Shown here piece after piece: positions 4,287 through 61,301 of a stretch of DNA of 64,000 nucleotides. Every line of letters starts with the position of its first letter. The stretch's first letter is position 1. The notes below the pieces were generated by a model, which had not been told where the DNA came from, searched no databases, and saw nothing but the letters and a program-made list of their open reading frames with translations. The position numbers and the translations under genes were made by a program. The stretch comes from Candidatus Omnitrophota bacterium (GTDB lineage: Bacteria; Omnitrophota; Gorgyraeia; Aquiviventales; Aquiviventaceae), in contig JAHFGX010000001.1 of assembly GCA_023247215.1 (NCBI GenBank), positions 36,880 through 100,879 on the forward strand. Direction: 5' to 3'.

Positions 4287-4396
4287 GCACGCCTCGAATT
4301 GGCCGGATCGCGCGTGGTTCGAGATGCGCCGGCTGCTCCATGTCGCGTGCGACTGGATGACCATCGCGGATGCCTAATCTGACCACAGGGGGAGCC

Positions 4397-6395: not shown

Positions 6396-6397
6396 GC

Positions 6398-7780: not shown

Positions 7781-8235
7781 TCGCCGCCGAGCGCAAAGGC
7801 ATCGCGGTGCGGCACGTCGGCGTCGTGGTCAAGGATCTGGAACGGTCGCTGCAGTTCTATCGCGATCTGTTGGGGCTGCGCGTTGTGACGCGCAGGGAGG
7901 AAGCCGGCGAGTATCTTGATCGCTTGCTGGCATTGAAGAACGCCAGGATGACGACGGTGAAGCTGGCCGCTGCGGAGGGGGGCGCCGTCATCGAGTTGCT
8001 GCGGTTCCATTCGCCTCAGGGTGCAGCGGAGGCACCGCGGACGATCTGCACGCCCGGCCCCACGCATGTGGCCTTTGGCGTGGAGGATCTGGCGGCGCTG
8101 TATCAGCGGCTGCGGCAGGCCGGCATCCGGTTCAACGCGCCGCCGCAGCGCTCCCCGGACGGCTCCGCCAAGGTGTGTTGCTGCCAGGACCCGGATGGCA
8201 TGACGATCGAATTGGTCGAGGTGCTGTCCTCATGA
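7777..8235 (+). CDS. VOC (glyoxalase / bleomycin-resistance / dioxygenase) family protein
   Basis: HVGVVVKDLERSLQFYRDLLG and HVAFGVEDL paired beta-alpha-beta-beta-beta modules. ATGA overlap with the aminotransferase stop. Confidence 0.65.
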   Translation: MIAAERKGIAVRHVGVVVKDLERSLQFYRDLLGLRVVTRREEAGEYLDRLLALKNARMTTVKLAAAEGGAVIELLRFHSPQGAAEAPRTICTPGPTHVAFGVEDLAALYQRLRQAGIRFNAPPQRSPDGSAKVCCCQDPDGMTIELVEVLSS

Positions 8236-12141: not shown

Positions 12142-12991
12142 ACGGCCTTCGGCTCGCGCACAAGGACGGCGCCTTTTCGATCTGACCGGCCGTGTGGCGG
12201 TCATCACCGGAGGCGCCGGTCTGCTCGGGGTGAAGCACGCCGAGGCGATTGCCGAAATGGGCGGCCTGCCTGTGCTGTGCGATGTGCGCGGTGAGGAGGC
12301 GGAGCGCGCCGCCGCGCGGATCGCCAAGCGCTATGCGGTCCGGGCGTTAGGCGTGCGTGCCGACATTACCGATCCGCGGCAGGTGGCCACGCTGCGGGAC
12401 CGCACCCTCTCCTCCTTTGGGCGCGTGGACATTTTGATCAACAACGCCGCGTGCAATCCGGCGGTGACGGCGGCGGGCCGCAATGGACCAGCATGGTCGC
12501 GGCTGGAGCAGTTTCCGTTGAAGGCATGGAACCGCGACGTCGCGGTCGGGTTGACCGGCGCGTTTTTGTGCAGCCAGGCGATCGGCGGCGCCATGGCCCG
12601 GCGCGGGCGCGGCGTGATTTTGAACATCGCCTCGGACCTCTCGGTGATCGCCCCGGACCAGCGGATCTACCGGCAGCCGAAGCGGGCTGCGGCTCAGCAA
12701 CCGGTGAAGCCCGTGAGCTACTCGGTCGTCAAAACCGGCCTCCTTGGCCTCAGCCGGTATCTGGCCACCTACTGGGCGGCGCAGGGCGTGAGGGTGAACA
12801 CGCTGTCCCCGGGCGGCGTGGCTGCGGATCAGCCTGAGGAATTCGTCCAGCGCCTTTCACAACTCATTCCTCTGAAGCGCCTGGCGCATCCTGATGAGTA
12901 TAAAGCGGCGGTGGTGTTTCTGGTGTCGGATGCCTCCTCGTACATGACGGGCGCGAACCTCGTGATGGACGGGGGGAGGAGCTGCTGGTGA
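12122..12991 (+). CDS. SDR-family oxidoreductase
   Basis: VAVITGGAGLLG, NNAA, YSVVK (YxxxK). Alternative GTG/ATG start at 12083. Confidence 0.75.
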   Translation: MPTTTSKRPSARAQGRRLFDLTGRVAVITGGAGLLGVKHAEAIAEMGGLPVLCDVRGEEAERAAARIAKRYAVRALGVRADITDPRQVATLRDRTLSSFGRVDILINNAACNPAVTAAGRNGPAWSRLEQFPLKAWNRDVAVGLTGAFLCSQAIGGAMARRGRGVILNIASDLSVIAPDQRIYRQPKRAAAQQPVKPVSYSVVKTGLLGLSRYLATYWAAQGVRVNTLSPGGVAADQPEEFVQRLSQLIPLKRLAHPDEYKAAVVFLVSDASSYMTGANLVMDGGRSCW

Positions 12992-14919
12992 AACCGAGCG
13001 CCGGGTTCTTCGAAACCGCGCAGGAGCTGGATCAGCTGCGCGCGTGGTCGGCGCAGACCAACACCGAGCTGATGCTGGTGGCGTTGACGCCGGAGGCGGA
13101 TGCCGCCGCAGAGCAGCGGGGGCTGACGTATCACAGCATTGAAGATTTGTACATGGAAGAGGATCTGGTGGTGCGCGGTTTGGCGCAATTTGAGATCTTG
13201 GAGCGGTTCTGCGATGCGGTGGACGAGGCGCTTCACGCCAATGCCGGGCCAGTCTCCGAGGTCCGCCATTTTTCACTCCGATATGAGTTTCAGTTTCTCA
13301 AAATGATTATGGACGCGTTGCTGCATCGGACGGCCACGCTGGCGTCGGCTCTGGAGACGCTGGCCCCCCAGGCGGTGGTCTATTGCCGTTATCCGTCGGA
13401 TGTGGTGCCGGCCGGTCGCTGGGCCATTCCATCTTCCGTCTCCCGCTGGCTGCTGCCGTTCGTTGCGGAACAGCGAGGTTGCCAGGCGATCGGCCTGACC
13501 GTTGCTGCCCGGCCGCCGGCGCGGTTTCCCGGCATGGCAGCGCAGTTGAAGCGGTGCGTCAGAAGCGCTTCGGCTCGCGCCATAGGGCTGGGGCGATGGT
13601 TGCGGCGCCACCATGCGGCTCTTGTCGGCGCATCCCGGCCCCCTGGGGTGCGGGGCTCACAAGAGGCGACCCTCGTGTTGACGGGTTTGTGGTCGGATCG
13701 GGATGCGCTGCAGGCATGGCTGGCCGAAGGCGGCCGCCTGATACATTGGCGGACATTAGTGAGGCGCGTGGCATCGCCGTCCCCCGATGCTGCCGCCGAT
13801 GCTGAGCTTGAGGCGGTCGTCGAGCGCTGCTGGAATGCGCTGAGACACGATGCCGAGGTGCGAGCGTTGTTCAGGATTGACGGCGTGGATCTCGCCCCGC
13901 TGGTCGAGCAGCCGCTCCGCTCGTTGTTCGCGGATCTCTTGTCCAGGCATTGCCGGATTTCGCGCCGGATGGATGCGGCCTTCAAGACGGTCAGCCATCC
14001 CATTGTCCTTGGATCAACCTTCGTCCGGGTTGAAGAGGTGGCGTGTGCCGCGGCTGCCCGCCGGGCAGGGATCCCGGTGATTGCGTATCAGCATGGAGGG
14101 TTTCTTGGGTATGTCGATTTTCCGATGCAGCGGTTTTGCGACATGGGGCTGCCGGACTATTACCTCAGTTACGGAAGGGGTGTTTCGGAAGCCATGGAGC
14201 GGTTCTCCGGGCAGACCATCCCTGTGACCATTGGCTCTTCGGATCTTGATCGCTTGATGACCGCGCATCGGAAGCCCGGCCGCCGCCCGGGCCGGACGGC
14301 CGTGTATGTGGTGACGCTGCTCATGGGCGACCGGCGCTATTTCACTCTCCATGCCTATCCGGATATCCAGTATTGGCGGCTGCAGCGGCAGGTAATCGAG
14401 CGGTTGAGCCACGCCGACATCGAGTTGATCGTGAAGCTGGACCCGCGCGATATGGTGCCCAATCCTCTGAAGTCATGGGCCCGGCGGCAGCGCGTGAAGC
14501 GGTGCCGGTTCGTGCGGGATGTGTCGTTTGCCGAGGTGCTCGGCCGGGGAGACCTGATCATCATCGACAGCCCCTCGACCACGCTGCTGCAGGCGCTGGC
14601 GACGCATAAGCCGGTGATCGCGTTCGCGGATCGCCGCTTCATTCATTTCACGCCGGAGGCGACCGGGTTGCTCAGAAAGCGCGCGGTTTTTTCCACCACG
14701 CCGGAAGAATTTTTTCGGGACATCGATGCGGCTGTGCACACCCCGTCGTGGGGACCGGTCTCGCCGGTAAACGATGAGTTCCTCAGCCGCTATGGCACCC
14801 ATGAGAACGATGGCGGCTCGGCGCGCCGCGCCGCGCAGGCGCTGTGGGACATCGCGCGCCACCCGCGCGATGCACGGGGGGAGCAGGCACCAGCGGCATT
14901 CACGAGCGTCGGAGGATAA
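12988..14919 (+). CDS. Large TagF/KpsC-like transferase (CDP-glycerol glycerophosphotransferase / capsule-polysaccharide-synthesis superfamily), 643 aa
   Basis: C-terminal block DLIIIDSPSTTLLQALATHKPVIAF resembles the D-x-LITDYSS ... KPxIxF signature of TagF/KpsC/KpsS-type transferases. The N-terminal 350 aa has no recognisable motif. GTGA overlap start. Confidence 0.4.
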   Translation: MKPSAGFFETAQELDQLRAWSAQTNTELMLVALTPEADAAAEQRGLTYHSIEDLYMEEDLVVRGLAQFEILERFCDAVDEALHANAGPVSEVRHFSLRYEFQFLKMIMDALLHRTATLASALETLAPQAVVYCRYPSDVVPAGRWAIPSSVSRWLLPFVAEQRGCQAIGLTVAARPPARFPGMAAQLKRCVRSASARAIGLGRWLRRHHAALVGASRPPGVRGSQEATLVLTGLWSDRDALQAWLAEGGRLIHWRTLVRRVASPSPDAAADAELEAVVERCWNALRHDAEVRALFRIDGVDLAPLVEQPLRSLFADLLSRHCRISRRMDAAFKTVSHPIVLGSTFVRVEEVACAAAARRAGIPVIAYQHGGFLGYVDFPMQRFCDMGLPDYYLSYGRGVSEAMERFSGQTIPVTIGSSDLDRLMTAHRKPGRRPGRTAVYVVTLLMGDRRYFTLHAYPDIQYWRLQRQVIERLSHADIELIVKLDPRDMVPNPLKSWARRQRVKRCRFVRDVSFAEVLGRGDLIIIDSPSTTLLQALATHKPVIAFADRRFIHFTPEATGLLRKRAVFSTTPEEFFRDIDAAVHTPSWGPVSPVNDEFLSRYGTHENDGGSARRAAQALWDIARHPRDARGEQAPAAFTSVGG

Positions 14920-14922
14920 CGC

Positions 14923-15927
14923 ATGACGTCTGAGTTTTTCGACCGGCAAGGATACGTCCTGCTCAAAGGGGTACTGAACCGCGAGCAATGCCGGTTGCTG
15001 CGGGCACGCATCCAAGACGCATTTCGCACCATTGAGGCGGCGCGGCCCGACCAGGACCTGCGCTTCCTCCCCCCGTCGGTTTCATTTTCCATTCCCGAGG
15101 TCTGGGCGTTTCCCGTTCATGAGCGGATCACGGCCGCGCTCTCGGCGATCCTGGAGCCGCGCTATACGCTGATCCCGGATCTGCAGGTGCAACGGGACAC
15201 GTTCGGGTTCGGGCAGATCAATATTCAGGGCATCCGGGTTCCGCGGTGGGGCTGGCATCAGGACACGGGGTCGGAAGGGTATCGGCCCCAGCACATGGAT
15301 CCCCGGTACCGTTTTGTGAAGTGCGGGCTCTACCTGCAGGACAACACAGCCGCCTACGGCGGCAGCGTGGACATCGTTGCGGGATCGCACCGGCTGCCCC
15401 TGCGGACAGGCGACATTGCCCGGGACTGGAAAATCCGTCAGGTAGTCGGGAAGGCCAGGATCATGCTCGAAGCCCGGACCCTGCCGATCGAAGCCGGCGA
15501 CGCGCTGCTGTTCGATTCGTACCTATGGCATGCCAGCACCCTGCCGGCCGGATGGCAGCAGCAGGTGATCCCGCGCCAGCGGGCGTTGGGCATTATGCGC
15601 CTACCGCAACCACATGAAAAATTGACTGTCTATTTCAATGCCTGCCGAGCGTTCTGCGCCGAGGCGTACATGCAGCATTCATTGGCTCGGGCCAGGACGG
15701 AGCATGCCGACGCGCTCAACGCATCTCACGCTGCCGAGCTGTTTTATTGCGACTATCTGGATCTGGGCGTGAGCGGCAACCCGCCGGCGGAATTTCTTCA
15801 TCAGGTTGAGCGGGCTGGCCTTCGCGTGGCCGCGCTTGAGGGTGCGCCATTTGAGGAAGCCGCCCGCTTGCGCCGGGAGAGCGTCATGTCAGGACGCGTG
15901 AACAACGTACTTCCGCAGACGGTGTGA
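14923..15927 (+). CDS. Phytanoyl-CoA dioxygenase (PhyH) family Fe(II)/2-oxoglutarate-dependent oxygenase
   Basis: WHQDTGSE (H-x-D) and LWHAS distal His with PhyH-like spacing; 334 aa. Confidence 0.6.
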   Translation: MTSEFFDRQGYVLLKGVLNREQCRLLRARIQDAFRTIEAARPDQDLRFLPPSVSFSIPEVWAFPVHERITAALSAILEPRYTLIPDLQVQRDTFGFGQINIQGIRVPRWGWHQDTGSEGYRPQHMDPRYRFVKCGLYLQDNTAAYGGSVDIVAGSHRLPLRTGDIARDWKIRQVVGKARIMLEARTLPIEAGDALLFDSYLWHASTLPAGWQQQVIPRQRALGIMRLPQPHEKLTVYFNACRAFCAEAYMQHSLARARTEHADALNASHAAELFYCDYLDLGVSGNPPAEFLHQVERAGLRVAALEGAPFEEAARLRRESVMSGRVNNVLPQTV

Positions 15928-16721
15928 TGAGGCGGCTCAAGCCCTGGCTCTATCGCCGGCTTCAAGCGCGGCGTTGGTTCCGCCAGCTCGCGACGCGGAA
16001 TTTTTCGTCCGGCCTCATCGCGCTGGGCGAGCAAAATCGCTACGGCATTCGGCCGGAATGGATCACGGTGGATGCGGACGGCGCAGATGTCAACGTCGAT
16101 TTCCGGCAGCGGCAGCCGCTGCCGTTTCCCGACGCCTCGCAGCGCGTGATCTACGCCGCGCACGTCATTGAACATCTCGGTGAGGAGATGCTTGCGTACC
16201 TGCTGTGGGAGAGCTGCCGCCTGCTGAAGCCGGGCGGTACGCTGCGCCTTGAGGCGCCGGACCTGGAGCGGGCTATCGAGGCGTACCGGCAGCGGGATCG
16301 CGCCTTTCTCGACTACTTCCGCGAGGAGTACCGCGCATCGCTGGTGGAAGGTTTGGGATTGCCGATGGCGTACACGGAAGATCATGTCGCGTTGCTCGGC
16401 GTGGCGTCCTGTTACATTGAACGGAACACGCAGATTCCCGTCTTAGCGTCCCGCGAGGAGACGGACCGCCGCGTCGGCACGCTCACCGTGGAGGAGTTCG
16501 GCCGGTGGTGCGTGTCGCTGCAGAGCCCGCAGCAGCAGCGCAGCGGTGGGCATATCACGCCCATCTATTTTGAGAAGCTGCGCCGGATGCTGACGGATGC
16601 CGGGTTTACGATGGTGCGACGTGTCAGCAACGGCAGCACTCATGTCGCCGGGCTGGCGCTGCGTGGGGTGGAACGTCCGCATCGGGCCTGCTACTCGCTG
16701 TATGTCGAGGCCGTCAAATGA
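15924..16721 (+). CDS. Methyltransferase-fold protein (Methyltransf_11/23-like), possibly degenerate with no clear Gly-rich SAM motif
   Basis: VIYAAHVIEHLGEEM ... LLKPGGTLRLEAPD resembles the post-motif-II region of class I methyltransferases. An N-terminal GxGxG is not evident. Confidence 0.4.
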   Translation: MMRRLKPWLYRRLQARRWFRQLATRNFSSGLIALGEQNRYGIRPEWITVDADGADVNVDFRQRQPLPFPDASQRVIYAAHVIEHLGEEMLAYLLWESCRLLKPGGTLRLEAPDLERAIEAYRQRDRAFLDYFREEYRASLVEGLGLPMAYTEDHVALLGVASCYIERNTQIPVLASREETDRRVGTLTVEEFGRWCVSLQSPQQQRSGGHITPIYFEKLRRMLTDAGFTMVRRVSNGSTHVAGLALRGVERPHRACYSLYVEAVK

Positions 16722-18238: not shown

Positions 18239-18278
18239 GCCGGGCGACGGTGGCCGCCACGCTCCATCAGTGAGGCCC

Positions 18279-19076
18279 ATGGAACGCTTGTTCTTCCAAC
18301 GCGAATGGCAGCGCATTTCGCTGAAACCGCTAGCTTCGGCCTCTGCCGCGCCGGTGGCGGACCGCGGCGTCTATGCCACCTTCTATCGGCAATGGACAGC
18401 GGACGGCCAGGCGCTGGCTCCGGAATGGGTGGCGGTCAAGCGCCGCATCGGGGAGTGGATTGCCGACGCGTGCGTGGCGCCTCGCGGCGCGAACGGTTCC
18501 ACATGGGTCTTATCCGTGGGGGCCGGGCTGGGATTCGTCGAGCGCGTGCTGGTGGAGCGCGGCTATCAGGTGGATGCCCTGGAGTGCGAAGCGGAATCCC
18601 TCAAGTATCTTGCCACCCATGTGGCGGGGGTGCGGGGCATGATCGGGGATGCGAGGCAGATTCCATGCCGCGACGGGTTGTATGACGTGGCGTATCTCTC
18701 AACGGTGGATTACTGTTTCGATCGGTTGGAGTACGTGCAGGTGCTGCGCGAGTTGCGCCGGGTGATGCGGCCTGAAGGCCGGGTCGTGGTCATCTGCGCT
18801 TCCAATCTATGCCTTCAAGAGATCGCGCGGCTGGCTGCCCGGCGCGTGCTGGCTCGCCGATTGGCGCGGGACCGGGAGCAGGTGCCGTGGGGGTATATGC
18901 GAACCATTGGCGCTCATCTGCGCGCAGGGCGCACCGCCGGATTGGCGTGCGAGGAGGTATCGCTGTTCGATCAGGCGTTCCGGCTGCTCGGCACCCGCCC
19001 AGGCGCGTCCTGGCGGGCCGGATGGCCGACGTTCAATGACGCTGTGGTGGCAGTGATCTTCAGGCGCGCCGCATGA
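18279..19076 (+). CDS. Class I SAM-dependent methyltransferase
   Basis: Motif I VLSVGAGLGF, motif II acidic residue VDALE, motif III MRPEGRVV. Confidence 0.65.
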   Translation: MERLFFQREWQRISLKPLASASAAPVADRGVYATFYRQWTADGQALAPEWVAVKRRIGEWIADACVAPRGANGSTWVLSVGAGLGFVERVLVERGYQVDALECEAESLKYLATHVAGVRGMIGDARQIPCRDGLYDVAYLSTVDYCFDRLEYVQVLRELRRVMRPEGRVVVICASNLCLQEIARLAARRVLARRLARDREQVPWGYMRTIGAHLRAGRTAGLACEEVSLFDQAFRLLGTRPGASWRAGWPTFNDAVVAVIFRRAA

Positions 19077-20227
19077 TACCAACCGCTCGACCGTCGCTCG
19101 GGCAGGAGGAGCTCAACGCCGTTGGGGAGGTTTTCAGCAGCGGCTGGCTGGGATTGGGCTCGACCACCTATGAATTCGAGGAGGCCATCAAGCGGCGGCT
19201 TGGCGCGGCATATGTGGTGGCGGTGAATACCGGGTCCTCCGCGCTCCATCTGGCCATCGAGGCGTTTGGGATCGGGGCCGGGGATGAGGTGATCGTTCCC
19301 TCCTTGACCTTCGCCGCCTCGGTGCAGGCGATCATTGCCGCCGGCGCGCGGCCGGTCTTCTGCGACGTGGACGAAGATACCTTGCTGATGGATGCGGCGG
19401 ATGTGGAGCGGCGCGTGACACCCCGCACCCGCGGGGTGATGCCGGTGCACTACTGCGGGCAGCCGTGCGACATGGACCGGCTGCTCGTGCTGGCCGAGCG
19501 CCAGGGGTTCGCGGTCATCGAGGACGCCGCCCACGCGTTCGGCTCCACGTCGCGCGGCCGGATCATCGGCAGCTTCGGCCATGCGACCTGCTTCAGCTTC
19601 GATCCGATCAAGACCATCACCTGTGGCGAGGGGGGCGCGGTGGCGCTGGCCGACGGCGAGGCGGCCGAGCGGCTGCGCCGGATGCGGCTGTTGGGCATTG
19701 ACAAGGATGCCTGGCGGCGCCAGGGGCAGGCGAAGAGCTGGTGGTACGAGGTAACCGCGCCGGGCTGGCGCTACCACCTGCCGAATTTCTGCGCGGCGAT
19801 CGGGCTGGCGCAGCTGCGCCGGCTCGACGAGATCATCGCTCGGAGGCGGGCGGTGTGCCTGGCGTACGACGCGGCGTTCGGCGAGCTGGCGTCCGTCCGC
19901 CCGCTCCGCGTGAATTATGAGGAGACCGCCCCGCAGCTCTACATCGTCAAGGTGCCGGCGGACGCCCGGGGCCGATTCATGGAGTTCCTGGCGGCGCGCG
20001 GCGTCGGCACCGGCGTCCATTATCTGCCGAACCACCGCCAGCCGTTCTTTGCGCCCTATGCCGCCGGGGCGTTGCCGCGCACCGACCGCGTGGCGGGAGA
20101 GATCGTGACGCTGCCGCTGTATACCGACCTGACCGATGCGGAGGTGGGGACGGTGGTCGAGACGGTGAGGGCGTTCGACCGGATGGTGGCGAGGGCGGTC
20201 TGTGCAACGCCGACGAGGGCGTCCTAA
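19073..20227 (+). CDS. DegT/DnrJ/EryC1/StrS family PLP-dependent sugar aminotransferase
   Basis: N-terminal RPSLGQEELNAVGEVFSSGWL; the SFDPIKTIT region is the likely Lys-PLP site; 384 aa. ATGA overlap. Confidence 0.85.
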   Translation: MIPTARPSLGQEELNAVGEVFSSGWLGLGSTTYEFEEAIKRRLGAAYVVAVNTGSSALHLAIEAFGIGAGDEVIVPSLTFAASVQAIIAAGARPVFCDVDEDTLLMDAADVERRVTPRTRGVMPVHYCGQPCDMDRLLVLAERQGFAVIEDAAHAFGSTSRGRIIGSFGHATCFSFDPIKTITCGEGGAVALADGEAAERLRRMRLLGIDKDAWRRQGQAKSWWYEVTAPGWRYHLPNFCAAIGLAQLRRLDEIIARRRAVCLAYDAAFGELASVRPLRVNYEETAPQLYIVKVPADARGRFMEFLAARGVGTGVHYLPNHRQPFFAPYAAGALPRTDRVAGEIVTLPLYTDLTDAEVGTVVETVRAFDRMVARAVCATPTRAS

Positions 20228-21855
20228 TGACGACCGACCTGCGCGTGCTCGACTGCACCCTCCGCGACGGCGGGTACTACAACGAGTGGAACTTTCCCCG
20301 CCCGGTGGTGGACCGCTATCTCCAGGCGCTGCAGTCGGCCCGGGTGGACGCCATTGAAATCGGGTTCCGATTGCTCCCAGAGGACCGCTTCTTGGGCCCC
20401 TATGCCTACTCCACCGACGCGTTCCTCAAGACGCTGCCCCTTCCTAAGGAGGCGCTCCTGGGGGTGATGGTGAATGCGAAATCCCTCCTCGCCTCTGCGG
20501 ACGGTCCGGAGGCGGCGCTCGCGTCGCTGTTTCAGAAGGCGGATCGCTCCCCGGTCCGGCTGGTTCGCATTGCCGCGCACTTCGATGACGTGGCGCGCAG
20601 CGAGGCGATCGCCTGCTGGTTGAAGGCCCAGGGGTACCTGGTGGGGATCAACCTCATGCAGGCCGCCGGCAAATCGGACGAGGAGTTGCAGCACGCCGGG
20701 GCCGCCATCCAGCGGTGGGGGGCCGTGCACGTGCTCTATTTCGCGGATTCGCTGGGCAACATGACGCCCCCGCGCGTGGCCGCGACGATCCGCGGACTGC
20801 GGCACGGCTGGCAGGGACCGCTGGGCATCCACGCCCATGACAATATGGGGCAGGCCGCGGCCAATTGCCTCGCGGCCACTGACGGCGGAGTCGCCTGGGT
20901 GGACGGAACGATCCTGGGCATGGGGCGGGGAGCCGGCAACGCGCGCACGGAGCATCTGCTCTTGGCCCTGAACGACCGAACGCCGAATCGCTACGCTCCG
21001 GAAGCGCTCTTTCCTATCGTCATGGAAGAGTTCGAGCAATTGCGGCGGCGGTATGGATGGGGCCCCAACCTCCTCTATTACTTGTCCGCCGCGTATTCGA
21101 TCCATCCGACGTTCGTCCAGGAGCTGATGGGCCGGGGGCATGACACGCACCACATGCTCGAGGCGCTGGAGTTTCTCCGGCGGTCAGGCGCGGCGATGTA
21201 CACGGATGAGATTCTGCATCAGGCGCTGTCCGGGAATGGGGGCGCCGGCGAGGGCGGGTGGTCCGCGCAGGGCTGGGCGCAGGGCAAAACCGTCATGATC
21301 GTCGCCCGCGGGCCGGGGATGCATCAGCACCTCGACGCGCTCTGCCGCTTCGTGGACGAGACGTCTCCGGTGGTGATCGCGCTGAACACGAACCCCGACT
21401 TTCCCAGGGAGAAGGTGACGGTGTTTGCCGCGTGCCACCGGATGCGGCTGCTGATGGATTTCAAGGACTACCAGCAGGGGGATCGGCCGCTGATCGCCCC
21501 GATTAGCATGATCCCCGACGAGGTGCGGGCCACACTGGTCCAGTCCCCATCGCTTCAGATTTTGGATTACGGGCTACGCGTCCAGCCGCGGACGTTCGAG
21601 GTGGGGCCCACCGGCTGCGTCATTCCGGGCTACGCGGTGGCCGCATATGCGATGGCGGTCGCCGAAGCCGCGGGGGCGGCGCGCATCCTGCTGGTGGGCT
21701 TCGACGGCTATGGGCCGGCCGATTCCCGGAGCCTGGAGATGTCGAATATCTTCCGGCTCTACCAGGCGCGGCCGACGACGGTGCCGCTGCTCGCGGTCAC
21801 CCCGACGACCTATGACATCCCGAAAAGCTCCGTCTACTCGCCGGGGCTGCGATGA
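20227..21855 (+). CDS. DRE-TIM metallolyase (HMGL-like / pyruvate-carboxyltransferase-type aldolase) with about 200-aa C-terminal extension
   Basis: LDCTLRDGGY (the LRDG metal-binding Asp of 4-hydroxy-2-oxovalerate aldolase, IPMS, HMG-CoA lyase) and IEIGF; HAHDNMG (H-x-H metal ligands). The C-terminal 340-542 has no recognisable family. Confidence 0.65.
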   Translation: MTTDLRVLDCTLRDGGYYNEWNFPRPVVDRYLQALQSARVDAIEIGFRLLPEDRFLGPYAYSTDAFLKTLPLPKEALLGVMVNAKSLLASADGPEAALASLFQKADRSPVRLVRIAAHFDDVARSEAIACWLKAQGYLVGINLMQAAGKSDEELQHAGAAIQRWGAVHVLYFADSLGNMTPPRVAATIRGLRHGWQGPLGIHAHDNMGQAAANCLAATDGGVAWVDGTILGMGRGAGNARTEHLLLALNDRTPNRYAPEALFPIVMEEFEQLRRRYGWGPNLLYYLSAAYSIHPTFVQELMGRGHDTHHMLEALEFLRRSGAAMYTDEILHQALSGNGGAGEGGWSAQGWAQGKTVMIVARGPGMHQHLDALCRFVDETSPVVIALNTNPDFPREKVTVFAACHRMRLLMDFKDYQQGDRPLIAPISMIPDEVRATLVQSPSLQILDYGLRVQPRTFEVGPTGCVIPGYAVAAYAMAVAEAAGAARILLVGFDGYGPADSRSLEMSNIFRLYQARPTTVPLLAVTPTTYDIPKSSVYSPGLR

Positions 21856-22610
21856 CGGCGCGCCTCGCCGTGCCGACGGTGCCGGCCGCATGGCTGGACG
21901 GGGCGCGGCACGTCTGTTGCGATAAAGACGGCGTCCTCGTGGACGTCCACCGGTACTGGACGCACACCTCGCGGCTGCGCGCGCAGCGCCTCGTGGAGCG
22001 GTTTCAGCTTCCGGCGGCCAGCGCGGACGGCCTGCTGCAGGCGATGGGCATTGACGCGGGCGCGGGGCGGATCCGGGCGCCGGGACCGGTGGGCTACGCG
22101 CCCCGGGCGGTCGTGATCGAGCATACCGCGCGCTACCTCGCGTCCCGGTCCGTGGCGGCCAGCGCGGAAGAGCTCCAAGACCTCTTCCGCGACGTGGACC
22201 AGCGGCAGCAGGCCGGGGAAGATTACGATGTGGCGATGCTGCCGGGAGTGCAGGAGTTTCTAGCCGGCGTGAAGCGGCGCGGGTGCCGGCTCTCGATCTA
22301 TACCTCGGACCGGCGGGATCATGCCCTGCGGATCCTGCATCGCCTGTCGCTCGATGCGTACGTGGACGAGGTGGTGGGGGGCGGGTGCGTGAGCCGGCCG
22401 AAGCCGGATCCGGAAGGGTTCCTCCTGGCGTGCGCGCGCGTCGGGGTGTTGCCTGAGGCGTCGGTGTATATCGGCGATACGGTCGAGGATCTCCAGATGG
22501 GTCGTGCCGGCGGCGCGAGCAAAGTGATCGGGGTGGCCAGCGGGTTGGGCAGCGCGCCGGAGCTGCTGGTCCAGACCCCCTATGTGTGCGAGCGGCTGGC
22601 CGATGGCTGA
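21852..22610 (+). CDS. HAD-IA family hydrolase (sugar phosphatase)
   Basis: Motif I CCDKDGVLVD (DxDGxL), S/T motif IYTSD, KPDPEG, and motif IV GDTVED. ATGA overlap. Confidence 0.7.
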   Translation: MTARLAVPTVPAAWLDGARHVCCDKDGVLVDVHRYWTHTSRLRAQRLVERFQLPAASADGLLQAMGIDAGAGRIRAPGPVGYAPRAVVIEHTARYLASRSVAASAEELQDLFRDVDQRQQAGEDYDVAMLPGVQEFLAGVKRRGCRLSIYTSDRRDHALRILHRLSLDAYVDEVVGGGCVSRPKPDPEGFLLACARVGVLPEASVYIGDTVEDLQMGRAGGASKVIGVASGLGSAPELLVQTPYVCERLADG

Positions 22611-23451
22611 GACGCTCTACAACGCGACGGCCGAGCTCGTGAAGGACGGCGGCGACGCCCGGGTGATCCGCGTGCTTCCGGATCAGCCGAAGGGCCGCCA
22701 CCTCGCCGGCCAGTACGGGAGCCTCGGCATGCCGTCGGAGGTTCATCCAGGTCGGTTGATCAAGCGGCCGTATTCGCTCTCGTGCTCCATGATCAATCTG
22801 GAGACGCGGCAGCTCATTGACGCCCAGGAGACCCCGTACTACGAGTTCTACTTTAACCGCGTGACGCCGAGGCCGGCCGGGCCGGAATCGCTGACCCCGA
22901 AGCTGTTCCGCCTGCGCAGCGGCGACCGGATCTTTTGCGGCCGGAAGATCACCGGGTACTACACGCTGCAGGACGTGCCGGCTGGACGCCACCTGCTGTT
23001 CATCAGCACGCTGACGGGGGAGTCAGCGAACAATGCGCTGATTGCGCAGGCCCTGCGGGAGGGCCGCTGGGGGCGGATCAGCCATCTGCTCGTCGGGACG
23101 AACGGCTGGCGCTCGCTCTACGAGGCGGAGCACGACGCCCTCATGCGCGCGATGCCGACGTACCGCTGCCGGACGCTCCGCGTGGAGACGTACGCGGCGG
23201 TGGAGGCGCGCTTGGCGGAGGGCCTTCGGGATGCGGCGCGGGCGGAGGACGAGCTGGGCTTCGCGTTGGATCCCGCGCGCAGCCACGTGTTCCTCTGCGG
23301 GGACCCGGCGCTGATCGGCGCGCCGGCCAAGCAGGGGGCCTGGCGCTATGTGACGCCGACGCATGGGGCGATCCCCATCCTGACGGCCGGCGGGTTCTCG
23401 CTTCGCACGCGGTTCAAGTTAGGGACGATCGAGTATGAAACCTATTGGTGA
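22603..23451 (+). CDS. Ferredoxin-NADP+ reductase-like FAD/NAD(P)-binding oxidoreductase
   Basis: RPYSLS (the RxYS FAD-binding motif of the FNR family). LLFISTLTGESANNA resembles the NAD(P)-binding GTG loop. 8-bp overlap with the HAD gene. Confidence 0.5.
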   Translation: MAETLYNATAELVKDGGDARVIRVLPDQPKGRHLAGQYGSLGMPSEVHPGRLIKRPYSLSCSMINLETRQLIDAQETPYYEFYFNRVTPRPAGPESLTPKLFRLRSGDRIFCGRKITGYYTLQDVPAGRHLLFISTLTGESANNALIAQALREGRWGRISHLLVGTNGWRSLYEAEHDALMRAMPTYRCRTLRVETYAAVEARLAEGLRDAARAEDELGFALDPARSHVFLCGDPALIGAPAKQGAWRYVTPTHGAIPILTAGGFSLRTRFKLGTIEYETYW

Positions 23452-24463
23452 ATCCATCGCGTGTGACCGCGTGGCGCTGCAGCGCCAGCTCCTCGCCTCC
23501 GGCCGGTTCTTCAAGCTGATCTGCGGCGCCGGCAACGAGGATGCGGAGGAGGTCTACAAGCTCTCGCTCGTCTACACGCTCGCGGGCGCGGCCGGCATCG
23601 ATCTGTCGGCCCGGCCGGACGTGGTGCGGGCCGCCCGCCGGGCGGTGGAGGACGCGCAGGCGCGGGTCAGGGCGGCCGGGCGGCCGGAGCCCCCATCTCC
23701 CTATCTGACGGTTTCGGTGGGCATGCCGGGCGATCCGCATGTGCGCAAGGCCCGCATTATCCAGGACGCCTGCACCCAGTGCAACGCCTGCATCCCGGTC
23801 TGTCCCACCGAGGCGATCCCGTCCTCCTTGGTCATCATCGAGAGCCGGTGCATCGGATGCGGGGCCTGCTCCGTGGCCTGCCAGGACGACGCGGTGTCGT
23901 ACACTCATAAGACGATCGAAATGGAAGCGGTGCTGCGCGATTGCCTGGCGGCCGGGGCGGAGAATATCGAGCTCCACGCCGCCGTCCGCGACCATGAGCC
24001 CGTCCTCAAGGAATGGGAGCTTGTCACCCGCCTCCTGCCCGGGCAGTTCGTGAGCGTCTGCCTGGACCGCGGGTACCTCTCGAACCGCGAGCTGCAGGTC
24101 CGGATCGAGCGGATGCTCGAGCTGGCGCACGGGCGGATGATCGTCCAGGCCGACGGGATTCCGATGAGCGGGGGTCGGGACGACTACAACACAACGCTGC
24201 AGGCGGTGGCGACGGCGGATGTCGTCGCCAAGACCAAGCTGCCGGTGCACCTGCTGCTGTCCGGCGGCACCAACGCCAAGACCGCCCAGCTCGCCCGCCT
24301 GTGCGGGGTGCCGTTTGCCGGCGTGTCGGTCGGGACGTTTGCCCGGCATCTGGTGTACGAGGAGATCAATGCCCCGGCGTTTCCGGGCGGCGGGACGCTG
24401 GAATCCGCCGTGGAGAAGGCAGACGCGTTGGTGCAGGCCTGCCTGCAAGACGGCTCGCCATGA
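23435..24463 (+). CDS. Ferredoxin-like protein with two 4Fe-4S cluster motifs plus about 200-aa C-terminal domain (possibly LdpA-like)
   Basis: CTQCNACIPVCP and CIGCGACSVAC, i.e. two CxxCxxCxxxC(P) motifs. 17-bp overlap with the FNR-like gene. Confidence 0.65.
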   Translation: MKPIGESIACDRVALQRQLLASGRFFKLICGAGNEDAEEVYKLSLVYTLAGAAGIDLSARPDVVRAARRAVEDAQARVRAAGRPEPPSPYLTVSVGMPGDPHVRKARIIQDACTQCNACIPVCPTEAIPSSLVIIESRCIGCGACSVACQDDAVSYTHKTIEMEAVLRDCLAAGAENIELHAAVRDHEPVLKEWELVTRLLPGQFVSVCLDRGYLSNRELQVRIERMLELAHGRMIVQADGIPMSGGRDDYNTTLQAVATADVVAKTKLPVHLLLSGGTNAKTAQLARLCGVPFAGVSVGTFARHLVYEEINAPAFPGGGTLESAVEKADALVQACLQDGSP

Positions 24464-25227
24464 GCCATGCGGGCCTGCGCGCAATCGGCATCATCCCGGC
24501 GCGGCTGCAGTCGTCCAGGCTGCCGGAGAAGGCGCTGGCCGACATCTGCGGCCTGCCCATGATCGTCCACGTGTATCAGCGCTGTGCGATGAGCCGCAGC
24601 CTGGACGCGGTCTATGTCGCGACCGATCACGAACGGATCCGGGAGGTTGTCACCGCCGCCGGGGGACAGGTGCTGATGACCGGCGCGCACCATCGGACGG
24701 GGACCGACCGCCTGGCCGAGGCGGCGGCGGCCCTGGAGTGCGACATCGTAGTCAACATCCAGGGGGATGAAGCGCTGGTGCGGCCGGAGCACATTGACGC
24801 GGGGGTGGCGGCCCTCCGCGAGGATCCCACGCTGAACGTCTCCATGTTGGTGAACCCGTTTCGGACGTACCAGTCGCCGTCGGACATCAAGGCGGTCCTG
24901 AACGAGCAGGGGGACGTCCTCTACTTCTCCAGGGCGGACATCCCGTCAGGGGCTCGGACGCCGGATCCTGAAATGCTGAAGGCGTATCACGTCGTGTCGT
25001 TCCGGAAGCCGTTGTTGCTGGCGTACGCGCAGTGGCCGCAGGGCCGCTTGGAGCGGATCGAGTACAACGAGTACCTGCGGATTCTGGAGCGGGGGCACCG
25101 CATCCGGGCGGTGCAGGTGGAGAGTGCGGCCGTCAGCGTGGATACGCCGGAGGATCTCGCCGTGGTCAGGCGCCTGATGGAGGCGGATACGCTCCGTCGG
25201 CGCTACCAGGAACAGGAGGTGCGATGA
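24460..25227 (+). CDS. kdsB: 3-deoxy-manno-octulosonate cytidylyltransferase family (CMP-Kdo synthetase KdsB/KpsU-like)
   Basis: Alignment by eye to E. coli KdsB: IIPARLQSSRLPEKAL, PMIVHVYQR, ATDHE, VNIQGDEA, LYFSRADIP, VDTPEDL. ATGA overlap. Confidence 0.85.
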   Translation: MSHAGLRAIGIIPARLQSSRLPEKALADICGLPMIVHVYQRCAMSRSLDAVYVATDHERIREVVTAAGGQVLMTGAHHRTGTDRLAEAAAALECDIVVNIQGDEALVRPEHIDAGVAALREDPTLNVSMLVNPFRTYQSPSDIKAVLNEQGDVLYFSRADIPSGARTPDPEMLKAYHVVSFRKPLLLAYAQWPQGRLERIEYNEYLRILERGHRIRAVQVESAAVSVDTPEDLAVVRRLMEADTLRRRYQEQEVR

Positions 25228-26756
25228 AGGTGTTGTTTCTCTATCCGAATCTCCGAGGCATGAACATGCTGCCGCCGGCGATTGCCATTCTCTCCGCGCT
25301 GCTGAAGCGGCACGGGGTGGAGTCCGAGCTCTTTGACACGACCTATTGGCGCATCCCGGGCGAGGACAACTTCGACAGCGACAAGGCCAAGGAAAAGAAC
25401 CTGAACGTGCGGCCGTTTGACTTCGCGGAGAAGGTGACCCTGCACGAGACGGACGTCTTCGAGGACTTCGAGAAGAAGGTCCAGTCATTCTCCCCCGACC
25501 TCATTGCGGTCTCGGCGACCGAAGATATGTTCCTGCTCGCCATCCGGCTGCTCGAGCGCGTCCGCTCGCGGGGGATCCCGACCCTCCTCGGAGGCGTGTT
25601 CGCCACCTTTGCGCCGGAGCTGGCCCTCAGCTATCCCCACATTGACATGGTGTGCGTGGGGGAAGGGGAGAAGTGCCTCGTGGAGCTGTGCGATCGGATG
25701 GGCCGCGGCCGCAGCTACGATGACGTGACGAACCTGTGGGTCAAGAAGCCGGACGGGTCGATCGTGAAAAATCTCATCACGGACCCGGTGGATTTGTCCG
25801 AGACCATGATCCCAGACATCGGCATCTTCGAGGAATCGCGCCTGTATCGTCCCATGGCCGGCCAGGTCTACCGGATGCTGCCCGTCGAGACGCACCGTGG
25901 CTGCCCGTTCACCTGCGCGTTCTGCAACTCCCCGTCCCAGGAGCGTTTCTACGAGCAGGAGACCGGCAAAAAGTTCCTTCGCGTCAAGCCGATGCCCAAA
26001 GTCCGCGAGGAGCTCCTCTATTACCGGGACGTCATCAAGGCCGAGTATTTCTACTTCTGGGCCGATACCTTCCTGGCATGGTCCCAGAAGCAGTTCGACG
26101 AGTTCTGCGAGATGTATGCCGACATCCGGATGCCCTTCTGGATTCAGACGCGCCCGGAGACGCTGACCGAGTATCGGGTCCGCCGGTTGAAGGCGGTGGG
26201 GCTGCACCGGGTGGCGTGCGGGATCGAGCATGGCAACGAGAAGTTCCGGCGCGAGCGGGTGGACCGGCGCATGAAGAACGACGACTTGGTCAAGTGGCTG
26301 CGGATTCTCAACGACGTCGGCGTGCCCTACAGCGTCAACAACATCGTCGGGTTCCCGACGGAGACGTATGAGCTGGCCTGGGATACGATCCGGCTCAACC
26401 GGCAGGTCAACGCGGACAACCATAACTGCTACTCCTTCTCGCCCTTCCACGGGACGCCGCTGCGCACGCTGGCGGAGCAGATGGGCTACATCACGCCGGA
26501 GGTCATCACCCGGTCGCTCACGCGGGACTCGATCTTGGACATGCCCCAGTTCCCTCGGACGCAGGTGGAAGGGTTCCGGCGGTGCTTCGTGATGTACGTG
26601 AAGTTCCCGGAGGAGCGGTGGCCGGAGATCAAGCAGGCGGAGGCCTTCACGCCGGAGGGGGATGCGATTTGGGAACGGTTGCGCGATGAGTTCGCCGCGA
26701 CCTTCTTTGCGTCGAAGCCAGAGGAGGAGTCCGGTGCCAACGCCATTCGCGCATAA
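25224..26756 (+). CDS. B12-binding-domain radical SAM enzyme (class B radical SAM methyltransferase-like)
   Basis: N-terminal cobalamin-binding Rossmann region (MKVLFLYPN ... LLGGVFAT). Radical SAM CxxxCxxC motif HRGCPFTCAFCNS; 510 aa. AGGAGG Shine-Dalgarno upstream and ATGA overlap with kdsB. Confidence 0.8.
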   Translation: MKVLFLYPNLRGMNMLPPAIAILSALLKRHGVESELFDTTYWRIPGEDNFDSDKAKEKNLNVRPFDFAEKVTLHETDVFEDFEKKVQSFSPDLIAVSATEDMFLLAIRLLERVRSRGIPTLLGGVFATFAPELALSYPHIDMVCVGEGEKCLVELCDRMGRGRSYDDVTNLWVKKPDGSIVKNLITDPVDLSETMIPDIGIFEESRLYRPMAGQVYRMLPVETHRGCPFTCAFCNSPSQERFYEQETGKKFLRVKPMPKVREELLYYRDVIKAEYFYFWADTFLAWSQKQFDEFCEMYADIRMPFWIQTRPETLTEYRVRRLKAVGLHRVACGIEHGNEKFRRERVDRRMKNDDLVKWLRILNDVGVPYSVNNIVGFPTETYELAWDTIRLNRQVNADNHNCYSFSPFHGTPLRTLAEQMGYITPEVITRSLTRDSILDMPQFPRTQVEGFRRCFVMYVKFPEERWPEIKQAEAFTPEGDAIWERLRDEFAATFFASKPEEESGANAIRA

Positions 26757-26769
26757 GAGCGCACGATGG

Positions 26770-28647
26770 GTGCTGACGACCCCCAGCCGCGCTGCGCGCT
26801 GGGCGCGCGCCGGGTCGCCTCGCGAACGGGAATGGTGCTACTTCGGCGCCGATGCGGCCCAGCGGGCGCGGCTCGAGGGCGTCCTGGCTCCGGCGAAGCG
26901 GGTGGAGCTGGCGGAGGGGCTCACCCGCGTCGCGTACGACGAAAAGCAGCCGTTTCTCGATTGGCTGCTCGAGGTGGGGCGGCACCAGCCGGACCACGTC
27001 TCGTGGTGGAGCTCCACGGTCGCGACGTGCAGCCCGCTGCAGACCGACATGTTTTTGCTGGCGTGCTATACCCGGCTGCTAGAGGCATGGCTGCGCGAGC
27101 CACCACCGGGGCCGCAGCGCTTGATCGTGGTGGAGGATCCCTGGCTCGGGCTGACGTTGCGGCGGCATGTCCAGCGTGATTCCCGCGTCGTCTGTGACGG
27201 CGTGGGATTCCTGGCCTGCGCTCGCGATGCCGTTCTCCGAATCGGGAAGGCGCCCCGGGTCGCGCTGGCGACGCTCTATTCGGCCGTGCGATCGTTCGTC
27301 CTGACCCGGCGGCTGTTTCCCCGCGTGGCGGATCTCGCTCCTGGACACCCGCCGGGCTCGACGCTCCTGTATACCTGGATTCGCCCTGAATCCTTTTCGG
27401 CGCCGGGGCGGCTGAACGATCCCTGGACCGGACGGCTCGACACCATCTTGAACCATCAGGACGGGCGCGTCGTTCGGCTCAGCTCGTCGGACATCCCGCC
27501 CGCCTTGCTGCGCCGGTTGCAGCGGCACGGGGTGCCGTGCCTCGTGACGCCGAGGCATCTGACCCTGGGCGATCTGGTGCGAGCCCTCGGCGCTTGGTTT
27601 CGCGTGCAGCGACTCGAGCGGCTGCCACGCTACCAGGGATGGGACTACCGGTGGCTGCTGGCTCGGGAAGAGCTTCGCGAATGGAGCCGCTCCGATTTTT
27701 GGCACTATCGGCTCGGCTACTTTGCGACGCGCCGGATCGCGGCGCGCTACGGACGCCAGGTGCAGAGCGTCATTTACCCCTTTGAGAACCAACCCTGGGA
27801 AAAGCTCTTCTGCCTGGCGTGGCGTGAGTGCGCCCCTCACGTGAAACTCATTGGGTATCAGCATTCGTGGGTGCCCCCCTTGCTCCTGCCCTATGCGCTC
27901 GCGAACGGGGCGTGGGACCTCCTGCCATTGCCGGATCAGATCGTGACGAGCAGCGAGTTCAATCTGGAACGGCTCTCGGATGGAGGCTATCCAGCTGAGC
28001 AGCTCCTCAACGGCGGCGCGCTTCGGCACGAATATCTGCATACGAAGCTTGATGAAATCGCGCGGCAACGGGCCGCCCGCGCCGAAGGGCATGGTGGCGA
28101 GGCGCCCACGGTGCTGGTGACCTTTCCGTTATCCCGGCCGCATGCCGGAAGCCTGCTCGCGGATTTCCTGTCGGCGTTCAGAGAGCCGCTGATCTTGAAG
28201 CCTGGGCGGGACGGGACGGTGCAGTTTCAGTTGAAATTCCATCCCGTCCTTCCGCTAGGGCACCTCCTGCCGGCCGGTGTCGCGCTTCCTCCGTGGATGA
28301 CCATCGTGCACGCGCCGATGGAGCAGTTGCTGCCGGGGACGGATCTGCTGCTGTATGTGGGGCCGACGTCAAGCTGGTGGGAAGCGTTTCTGAGCGGCGT
28401 GCCGGTGTTGAAATACCGGACCGACCTGATTGACATCGACGCCGGCAACCAGGCAGATGCCATGCCGGTGCCGGTGTGTTCCGGCGCCACCCTCCGCGCC
28501 TCCCTGGACCGCCTCCTGCGCGGCGACCGCCCCGCCGCCGGGCGCCCGCCGGCCGGCCTGGTGGAGAAGATGTACGGCCGGGTCAACGAGGCGCTCTGGG
28601 TCTCCGTCACACGGGGCCGGCCGCTGCCGGCCGGATCGTCAGGATAA
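26770..28647 (+). CDS. Large hypothetical protein, TagF/KpsC-like transferase superfamily member (about 625 aa); start uncertain (GTG 26770 or ATG 26686 inside the rSAM gene)
   Basis: C-terminal DLLLYVGPTSSWWEAFLSGVPVL resembles the LITDYSS ... KPxI block of Glyphos_transf/Capsule_synth enzymes. There is no in-frame ATG between 26686 and the long ORF body. Confidence 0.35.
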   Translation: MLTTPSRAARWARAGSPREREWCYFGADAAQRARLEGVLAPAKRVELAEGLTRVAYDEKQPFLDWLLEVGRHQPDHVSWWSSTVATCSPLQTDMFLLACYTRLLEAWLREPPPGPQRLIVVEDPWLGLTLRRHVQRDSRVVCDGVGFLACARDAVLRIGKAPRVALATLYSAVRSFVLTRRLFPRVADLAPGHPPGSTLLYTWIRPESFSAPGRLNDPWTGRLDTILNHQDGRVVRLSSSDIPPALLRRLQRHGVPCLVTPRHLTLGDLVRALGAWFRVQRLERLPRYQGWDYRWLLAREELREWSRSDFWHYRLGYFATRRIAARYGRQVQSVIYPFENQPWEKLFCLAWRECAPHVKLIGYQHSWVPPLLLPYALANGAWDLLPLPDQIVTSSEFNLERLSDGGYPAEQLLNGGALRHEYLHTKLDEIARQRAARAEGHGGEAPTVLVTFPLSRPHAGSLLADFLSAFREPLILKPGRDGTVQFQLKFHPVLPLGHLLPAGVALPPWMTIVHAPMEQLLPGTDLLLYVGPTSSWWEAFLSGVPVLKYRTDLIDIDAGNQADAMPVPVCSGATLRASLDRLLRGDRPAAGRPPAGLVEKMYGRVNEALWVSVTRGRPLPAGSSG

Positions 28648-46608: not shown

Positions 46609-46612
46609 GCCG

Positions 46613-61294: not shown

Positions 61295-61301
61295 CCTGCG
61301 C

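Follow-up and report, generated by a model that had tools for sequence, protein, structure and literature searches.

Proteins A and B of a Candidatus Omnitrophota glycan locus: divergent GT-B-fold proteins and putative transferases for CMP-activated ulosonic acids

Two large proteins and their reading frames

The stretch of DNA considered here (“the window,” 64,000 nucleotides of contig JAHFGX010000001.1 from a Candidatus Omnitrophota bacterium) is almost in its entirety a single glycan locus. Two of its genes encode proteins of about 640 residues, which we call A and B: A lies downstream of genes for a NeuB-like synthase and a PseF-like cytidylyltransferase, and B is adjacent to a cassette for an HMGL-like aldolase, a HAD phosphatase, a KdsB-like cytidylyltransferase and a B12-radical-SAM enzyme (Table 1). 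We put at about one half (0.5) the probability that A and B are each a dedicated glycosyltransferase for one ulosonic acid activated with cytidine monophosphate (CMP). They would move such a sugar, similar to sialic acid or to Kdo (3-deoxy-D-manno-octulosonate), onto a growing lipid-linked surface glycan, the donor of A presumably being made by the NeuB-like synthase and the PseF-like cytidylyltransferase encoded upstream, and that of B by the adjacent cassette. The observations from which this reading starts are the open reading frames (ORFs) and their starts, the homology of the two C-terminal halves, the GT-B fold, the conserved residues and the synteny with cytidylyltransferase genes.

Both ORFs had been named in an earlier reading of the letters alone (the sequence-only reading), and both are present on the + strand where it placed them. 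A begins at GTG 12988, eight bases past a GGAGG and overlapping the TGA of the upstream short-chain dehydrogenase/reductase (SDR) gene; this overlap (GTGA) suggests translational coupling. The ORF of B reaches back to ATG 26662 (661 residues, 26662-28647), but the supported start is neither this codon nor 26686: it is GTG 26734, six bases past a GGAGG at 26723-26727. The public database copy of B (P0008) is 637 residues long, 100% identical and fits this start; homologues of B begin 3-10 residues ahead of the first conserved strand, “RWVL,” and the AlphaFold2 model shows the first 24 residues of the long ORF as disordered. The earlier worry that B lacks a placeable start, with no in-frame ATG from 26686 onward, is answered by the GTG, and a pseudogene or a mis-called frame is ruled out by this start, behind its Shine-Dalgarno sequence, together with the full-length, high-confidence model. 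Residue numbers for B (e.g., E375, H401 and H527) are counted along the 661-residue ORF from 26662.

A common C-terminal core and its conserved residues

The sequence-only reading had found no recognisable domains in the two proteins apart from a C-terminal block. For our local copy of Pfam (which lacks the PF27859 model) this is correct, since neither A, nor B, nor their C-terminal halves gave a match even at E<=10; phmmer of A and B against the sequences of the PDB likewise returned noise only. It does not extend to NCBIfam, where A matches TIGR04331 (“LIC12162 family transferase”) below threshold over residues 352-562 (E 7.4e-15, 54.7 bits vs. a cut-off of 225) and B matches TIGR04326 (“surface carbohydrate biosynthesis protein”) over residues 355-584 (E 3.2e-21, 75.4 bits vs. 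250), nor to the precomputed annotation, which places PF27859 (“LIC12162”) on an identical copy of A (P0001) and on its homologues P0002-P0005 and P0007. B and its close homologues are not annotated with PF27859, which appears, weakly, on just two distant relatives, P0084 and P0085; this pair has links to DUF6716 (“putative glycosyltransferase”) as well, and a faint one to PF05159 (Capsule_synth; for P0084, E 0.016 and 15.1 bits vs. a cut-off of 20).

The same families emerge when relatives are searched. TIGR04326 is matched by all 59 members of the B family (best E 7e-41), four of which also match NF046086 at about 1e-4; the 72 representatives of the A family include 55 with a match to TIGR04331, 22 with one to NF046086 (best E 4e-18) and 16 with one to TIGR04396. 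A and B themselves have no match to NF046086 at E<=0.01 (curated cut-off 200 bits). A resembles LIC12162 proteins (PF27859/TIGR04331) in length (643 residues vs. a model of 585), and that family is found in surface-polysaccharide loci beside genes for nonulosonic acids; it differs in that only the C-terminal third of A matches TIGR04331, leaving the N-terminal half uncovered and A outside the curated family. The length of B is similar to that of the TIGR04326 model (O_ant_LIC13510, 602 residues), whereas its clade is unnamed and found mostly in metagenome-assembled genomes (MAGs) of Candidatus Omnitrophota. A and B are divergent members of already known yet uncharacterised families, and most likely anciently diverged members of one superfamily of GT-B enzymes of ~600-690 residues (LIC12162/LIC13510, “surface carbohydrate biosynthesis”).

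Word-indexed searches, with the single sequence or with a profile, returned only 7-8 homologues of A, and a scan of genome contigs gave four loci. With an exhaustive profile search the family grew to 2,576 cluster representatives at E<=1e-3, of which 629 had E<=1e-30; most are 600-690 residues long. The apparent rarity of the family was therefore an artefact of the word index. The closest homologue of A, with 53% identity, comes from a MAG that bears the label “uncultured Planctomycetales,” the other close relatives being in Omnitrophota/Omnitrophica; the label points to mislabelled binning or to exchange of the locus inside the Planctomycetes-Verrucomicrobia-Chlamydiae (PVC) group. Of B, 85 homologues were indexed, and all those with a source organism name come from Candidatus Omnitrophica MAGs.

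How A and B relate to each other depends on the depth of the comparison. By BLASTP they have no significant similarity (best E 0.4, at the C-terminal block), and recent paralogy was dropped on this ground. In a first profile-profile pass, A 291-610 aligned with B ~315-626 (probability 97%, E 8.9e-11), and with a deeper A alignment and separated halves the C-terminal halves aligned over 283 columns (98.9%, E 2.4e-17); the N-terminal halves had no detectable likeness, by profile comparison, to each other or to the C-terminal halves. The sequence-only reading had called the pair “paralogous-looking,” which is upheld for the C-terminal ~300 residues at the profile level and not for BLASTP or the N-terminal halves: from these comparisons, A and B are ancient relatives with a common C-terminal core of ~300 residues, not recent paralogues. 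The two blocks on which that reading had relied occur verbatim (DLIIIDSPSTTLLQALATHKPVIAF in A, DLLLYVGPTSSWWEAFLSGVPVLKY in B); they are more than chance, and sit in the best-conserved part of each family. The reading of this block as a transferase signature holds up well, since it forms part of the nucleotide-binding half of the GT-B fold.

The analogy of the sequence-only reading with the two-domain KpsC, drawn from size, did not survive: hhalign of the N-terminal against the C-terminal half gave probabilities of 0.9% (B) and 7.2% (A), so that there are no two tandem homologous glycosyltransferase modules, and each protein has a single HP/nucleotide-binding region. In the AlphaFold models, the order of secondary-structure elements looks alike between the N-terminal halves of A and B. 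Both halves carry a long, basic (+4 to +5), amphipathic helix (A residues 177-222, 13516-13653; B 183-218, 27208-27315), modelled with low confidence in A and confidently in B, and its matching position is a hint that the N-terminal halves share their architecture. A transmembrane scan found no transmembrane helix in A or B; the amphipathic helix may be a membrane-association element, and peripheral binding to the membrane through it (near residues 183-218) would be part of the mechanism that we propose.

The AlphaFold2 models reached a mean predicted local distance difference test (pLDDT) of 91.3 and a predicted template modelling score (pTM) of 0.90 for B (from a 59-sequence alignment) and 81.1 and 0.84 for A (from the A family with C-terminal fragments of B-family members). 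As modelled, both have a standard GT-B fold of two Rossmann-like domains with the nucleotide-binding site in the C-terminal one; solved GT-B proteins can be aligned with ~300 of the ~640 residues, and from the order of secondary-structure elements we infer an extra N-terminal alpha/beta region of ~220-300 residues. The closest structures for both are UDP-N-acetylglucosamine (UDP-GlcNAc) 2-epimerases/NeuC, TarL/TagF and MurG; other named matches are MurG (14.8), PseG (11.1) and the polysialyltransferase SiaD (10.1) for one protein, and WaaB (12.2) and WaaA (10.5-10.7) for the second. KpsC is absent from the top 60 matches of either. The TagF/KpsC-like fold that had been predicted is thus borne out as a GT-B fold with a genuine likeness to TagF/TarL, a likeness that does not appear to be specific, as the epimerases/NeuC and generic GT-B enzymes score as high or higher; the KpsC part is not borne out. 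KpsC/KpsS (GT107), WbbB (GT99), KpsS1 (GT118) and KrkA (GT140) are retaining transferases of Kdo or pseudaminic acid (Pse) with CMP-ulosonate donors, and the retaining Kdo transferases have a modified GT-B fold (PMC12887879), which on the present models is not the best description of A or B. Neither protein has a sequence match to PF05159/KpsC. The profile of B does align with four KpsC sequences of the PDB at “K-V-H-P-D ... E-A-L-L-A-G-K-P-V,” the K-x-H-P...EA..G-PV segment, at a sub-threshold E of 0.28-1.2.

Conserved residues are found on both sides of the predicted cleft. In A, the motif YQHGG follows a strand of the N-side Rossmann domain (Q368 in 108, H369 in 113 and G370 in 137 of 138 family representatives), and the C-terminal block carries D522 (131), D527 (123) and T531 (130); at position 535, 84 representatives have E and 36 have Q, which is also the residue of A. 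D390, G396 and G416-S417 are also conserved, and a basic residue is present at 483 in 137/138. In B, the N-side Rossmann domain carries a conserved string, Y-P-F-E375-N-Q-P-W-E-K381, and the motif GYQH, which both hhalign and MAFFT align with the YQHGG of A; E375 and K381 are invariant in the 59 family members, with Q400 in 58 and H401 in 51. The C-terminal domain of B has H527 (59/59), P528 (58), E574 (56) and G579 (58), and G452, R455, K525, D561 and T569 are conserved as well. K525-x-H527-P528 is an HP motif of the type found in sialyl- and Kdo-transferases. The motif pair of bacterial sialyltransferases is D/E-D/E-G with HP (Freiberger, 2007, as cited in PMC5420450); in B, a strand is followed by E158-D159-P160, conserved in 52, 53 and 44 of the 59 members, in which Pro would stand where D/E-D/E-G has Gly, and no N-domain motif of this type is evident in A. 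The sequence-only reading had asked after catalytic His and Asp residues, and candidates for these are conserved in both proteins (A H369, D522 and D527; B H401, H527 and D561), with the HP histidine missing from A. H369 and H401 would be the candidate counterparts of the catalytic histidine in the acceptor-side domain of TagF/TarL (TagH444/TarL H300).

In the mechanism that we propose, the C-terminal Rossmann domain would bind the cytidine nucleotide, in B through K525, H527-P528 and E574 and in A through K483, D522/D527/T531 and Q535; the Gln-His of YQH, contributed to the interdomain cleft by the opposite domain, would position or deprotonate the acceptor hydroxyl, and CMP would be the leaving group.

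The likeness to epimerases raises a different possibility, that A and/or B are hydrolases or 2-epimerases of nucleotide sugars, similar to NeuC or PseG, that act before CMP activation and release a free sugar, which the NeuB-like synthase or the HMGL-like aldolase would then condense. UDP-GlcNAc 2-epimerases/NeuC (PF02350) are the best structural matches, with a similar order of motifs in both Rossmann domains; the A profile has sub-threshold matches to SnogD and to two of these epimerases, in which “IPVxxYQHGG” of A falls on the strand-loop “IPVGHVEAG” of the epimerase, a position where MurG presumably has “HEQN” and TagF “WHG.” Against this, neither protein matches PF02350 at E<=10, and the A profile matches WecB structures weakly (E 0.049-0.86); when the catalytic carboxylates of PF02350 (D95, E117 and E131 in E. 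coli) are compared in that weak alignment, the equivalents of D95 and E117 are non-acidic in the A family. B, by contrast, has E375 near the position equivalent to D95. We regard a hydrolase or epimerase role as quite unlikely.

Gene context and the proposed donors

The gene order around A recurs elsewhere: helix-turn-helix (HTH)–NeuB–cytidylyltransferase–...–AP_endonuc_2–SDR–methyltransferase–SDR–A is found again in the Planctomycetales-labelled MAG (L001/L004) and in an Omnitrophota MAG (L005), with identities of 77-83% for NeuB and 68-69% for the SDR. NeuB and the cytidylyltransferase stand upstream of the A homologue in all three A loci (the window, L001/L004 and L005), and the order methyltransferase-SDR-A is retained in L001/L002/L004 and L005. 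The methyltransferase-like gene and the SDR always directly precede the A homologue (window 11041-12991; L001 8038-10001; L005 8116-9977), and this SDR, at 68-69% identity, is much more strongly conserved than A itself, which is at 43-53%. The NeuB/PseF-like genes, the class-III aminotransferase, the glyoxalase-fold protein, the AP_endonuc_2 TIM-barrel protein and the SDR are also present as a set in L001 and L005, and the end of L001 carries a B-like N-terminus. The NeuB-like synthase is divergent (216 bits vs. a cut-off of 400), as is the PseF-like cytidylyltransferase (149 vs. 206). No NeuC, PseG or PseB/C/H set is found near this module (4370-9843), and the nonulosonate made here may therefore be unusual.

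The cassette HMGL–HAD–FNR-like–LdpA-like–KdsB-like–(radical SAM)–B is present in the window (20227-26756), in L003 (2532-9172) and, without the radical-SAM gene, in L006 (10183-15949). More distant B loci swap it for other genes: radical-SAM/SPASM genes in L008 and L009 (with a pyruvate-kinase-like gene and a sulfotransferase in L009), and, in L010, genes for a dehydroquinate-synthase-like protein, SIS, 2-Hacid_dh and two GFO_IDH_MocA proteins. Each of these three loci has a second protein of 583-628 residues; that of L010 alone is annotated PF27859/LIC12162, the other two having no Pfam match. A CTP_transf_3 gene lies within 10 kb upstream in 6/6 B-family loci (the window, L003, L006, L008, L009 and L010), and it stays while the sugar-building genes vary; the B-family loci look like a modular design, “variable CMP-acid plus fixed transferase.” One member each of the A and B families also comes after a neuABC cluster in Herbaspirillum (PMC6679464).

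Pfam and NCBIfam scans covered ~58 long ORFs of the window, picked by eye. They revealed only two cytidylyltransferases, both CTP_transf_3 (the type for CMP-sugar acids), of which one is PseF-like and the other KdsB-like. None of the scanned proteins belongs to a recognised family of CMP-sugar transferases; the other glycosyltransferases are GT2, GT4, GT9, GT28-like, GT87 and PMT_2. The role in ulosonic-acid transfer that the sequence-only reading had proposed is plausible and fits this context of CMP-activation modules. We favour it because of the GT-B fold, the HP motif of B and the connection between the A family and the BFO_1060 transferases of nonulosonic acids (NulO); because the cytidylyltransferase gene is retained across the varied B-family loci; and because the window has two CMP-activating enzymes and no other candidate CMP-sugar transferase. 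NF046086 is the BFO_1060 family, which includes the Tannerella forsythia transferases Tanf_01245/TFUB4_00887 for derivatives of Pse or legionaminic acid (Leg) (PMC5420450). The support for these is genetic (knock-out and complementation), with no purified-enzyme assay, and they are described as TagB-like GT-B enzymes with D/E-D/E-G and HP motifs (PMC5420450). They are the only experimentally implicated relatives, being GT-B/TagB-like, with an HP motif, and encoded beside CMP-NulO genes; they differ from A and B in length (~445 residues vs. 643 and 637).

The other role that had been proposed, in the transfer of glycerol or ribitol phosphate, lost its ground. Here A and B would be phosphotransferases of the TagF/TarL type, polymerising or adding an alditol-phosphate or another phosphodiester-linked unit from a CMP-linked donor or one linked to cytidine diphosphate (CDP). 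The likeness to TagF/TarL is one of fold, whereas at the sequence level neither protein matches PF04464 at E<=10, no TagF/TarL is among the profile matches to PDB sequences, and no CDP-glycerol or CDP-ribitol genes (TagD, TarI/TarJ) were found in the scanned ORFs, the KdsB- and PseF-like CTP_transf_3 enzymes being the only cytidylyltransferases there. We consider a role of this kind very improbable.

A and B could also be ordinary GT-B transferases that use sugars linked to uridine, guanosine or deoxythymidine diphosphate, in which case the adjacency of cytidylyltransferase genes would reflect no more than a large conserved locus. This seems unlikely to us: CTP_transf_3 is kept in all six B-family loci despite their varying biosynthetic genes, the B family has an invariant HP motif, the A family is linked to the BFO_1060 transferases, and the two CMP-activated products of the locus would be left without a candidate transferase.

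Several points weigh against assigning A and B to CMP-ulosonic acids. A and most of its relatives lack the HP histidine: A has D485-P486, and position 485 is F in 35, P in 30, H in 27 and Y in 23 of the 138 representatives. The NCBIfam scores of the two proteins, 55 bits for A and 75 for B, fall far short of the curated cut-offs (225 and 250), their best structural neighbours are UDP-GlcNAc 2-epimerases/NeuC and not transferases, and no biochemically characterised member of TIGR04326, TIGR04331 or PF27859 was found in the literature. The synteny sample is small and comes mostly from one phylum (Omnitrophota MAGs). Reasoning from gene neighbourhood has also failed before: SpsB of B. subtilis, which has a TagB domain and DEG/HP motifs and is encoded beside CMP-Leg genes, is dispensable for Leg transfer (PMC7439481).

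Neither a NeuB nor a KdsA synthase is part of the HMGL cassette, which may lead, by a non-canonical route with a class II aldolase of the pyruvate type, to a 3-deoxy-ulosonic acid that is C-methylated and CMP-activated; nothing was found in the literature on a pairing of HMGL aldolase and cytidylyltransferase. A phosphonate pathway (Fom3/PhpK-like) as the explanation of the B12-radical-SAM/cytidylyltransferase pair was dropped, there being no phosphoenolpyruvate (PEP) mutase among the scanned ORFs. A bolder form of the transferase reading, which we hold only tentatively and think unlikely as a whole, is that B and its Omnitrophota clade constitute a new glycosyltransferase family, unclassified in CAZy, that acts on an undescribed CMP-3-deoxy-ulosonic acid from an HMGL/DmpG-like aldolase pathway, with A as a second new member, lacking the HP histidine, for a divergent NeuB-derived nonulosonate. 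The acid would then be built by a pyruvate-type class II aldolase in place of a PEP-dependent NeuB/KdsA synthase; the HAD protein would dephosphorylate it, the B12-radical-SAM enzyme, supplied with electrons by the FNR-like and LdpA-like proteins, would C-methylate it, and the KdsB-like enzyme would activate it.

The wider locus and the place of A and B in it

The window has a G+C content of ~66-70%, and its long ORFs are almost all on the + strand. Nearly all of 1-64000 has the character of a glycan/lipopolysaccharide-like locus on that strand, with more than 15 glycosyltransferase genes; the sole clear − strand gene is GT87-like (50908-52161), and the locus may end at a uracil-DNA glycosylase gene (61272-61994). 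Its 5' part encodes an asparagine synthase, an HTH protein and a transglutaminase-like protein ahead of the divergent NeuB and the PseF-like cytidylyltransferase. A class-III aminotransferase, a glyoxalase, an AP_endonuc_2 protein, an SDR and an SGNH protein lie between the latter and methyltransferase-SDR-A, and PhyH, a methyltransferase, a flippase, a second methyltransferase and DegT lie between A and the HMGL cassette. Downstream of B follow GT2, an epimerase, GT4, a carbamoyltransferase, a deacetylase, GT1+DUF218, PMT_2 and further glycosyltransferases, and beyond these a WecA-like initiating transferase, Wzy_C, two GT9 heptosyltransferases and more genes.

An Arn-like gene set is found on both sides of the HMGL cassette and B (19073-20227 and 28652-37497). 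It comprises DegT (ArnB model, 315 bits, sub-threshold), a GT2 protein of ArnC-like size, an NAD epimerase/dehydratase, the carbamoyltransferase, the polysaccharide deacetylase, GT1+DUF218 and the PMT_2 protein (ArnT-type, GT-C), and suggests that an undecaprenyl-phosphate-linked amino sugar is attached at the periplasmic side. L003, L008 and L009 likewise have the order B–(DegT)–GT2–epimerase–GT4.

Table 1. Coordinates of A, B, their motifs and other genes of the locus (window positions).
Feature	Positions	Strand	Basis or remark
NeuB-like synthase	4370-5353	+	Pfam NeuB 2.5e-62; NCBIfam NeuB/LegI, PseI below cut-off
PseF-like CTP_transf_3 cytidylyltransferase	5652-6395	+	Pfam CTP_transf_3 5.5e-24; NCBIfam PseF below cut-off
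Methyltransferase-like protein, 366 residues	11041-12141	+	Pfam; upstream of SDR and A
SDR, 302 residues	12083-12991	+	Pfam; immediately upstream of A
Protein A, 643 residues	12988-14919	+	GT-B fold (predicted); LIC12162 (PF27859) superfamily; putative transferase
A motif YQHGG, residues 367-371	14086-14100	+	After N-side Rossmann strand; candidate catalytic/acceptor-side His
A C-terminal block DLIIIDSPSTTLLQALATHKPVIAF, residues 522-546	14551-14625	+	Nucleotide-binding part of C-domain (predicted)
HMGL-like aldolase (HMGL/DmpG-like, 542 residues)	20227-21855	+	Pfam/NCBIfam, source-contig gene calls
HAD phosphatase	21852-22610	+	Pfam/NCBIfam, source-contig gene calls
FNR-like protein	22603-23451	+	Pfam/NCBIfam, source-contig gene calls
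LdpA-like Fe-S protein	23435-24463	+	Pfam/NCBIfam, source-contig gene calls
KdsB-like cytidylyltransferase	24460-25227	+	NF009905 cut-off reached (260 vs. 255 bits)
B12-radical-SAM enzyme	25224-26756	+	Pfam/NCBIfam, source-contig gene calls
Protein B, 637 residues	26734-28647	+	GT-B fold (predicted); divergent TIGR04326 relative; putative transferase
B motifs ENQPWEK (375-381) and GYQH (398-401)	27784-27864	+	N-side Rossmann domain, facing cleft (predicted)
B K-F-H-P motif (525-528) and C-terminal block DLLLYVGPTSSWWEAFLSGVPVLKY (561-585)	28234-28416	+	
WecA/MraY-type initiating transferase fused to CoA_binding_3 domain	42497-44320		
Wzy_C	44257-45576		
Two GT9 heptosyltransferases	45580-47713		
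Sugar C-methyltransferase	54983-56410		

Transferases for bacterial sialic-acid-like sugars are a poorly known class of enzymes, in which new CAZy families are still being created (GT118 in 2024 and GT140 in 2026; PMC12887879). A and B are not a new kind of system, and their assignment is at present a sensible functional annotation and not a surprise. The LIC12162 and TIGR04326 families to which they are related are widespread (the 2,576 cluster representatives at E<=1e-3), with no biochemical data found, and the locus pairs two divergent members, each with its own CMP-activation module, which yields a clear donor-enzyme hypothesis that is testable in vitro. The envelope glycans of the source phylum, Omnitrophota, are essentially unknown; if the pairing of transferase and CMP-activation module holds true, the rule would aid the annotation of many “hypothetical” proteins of some 600 residues in O-antigen and capsule loci.

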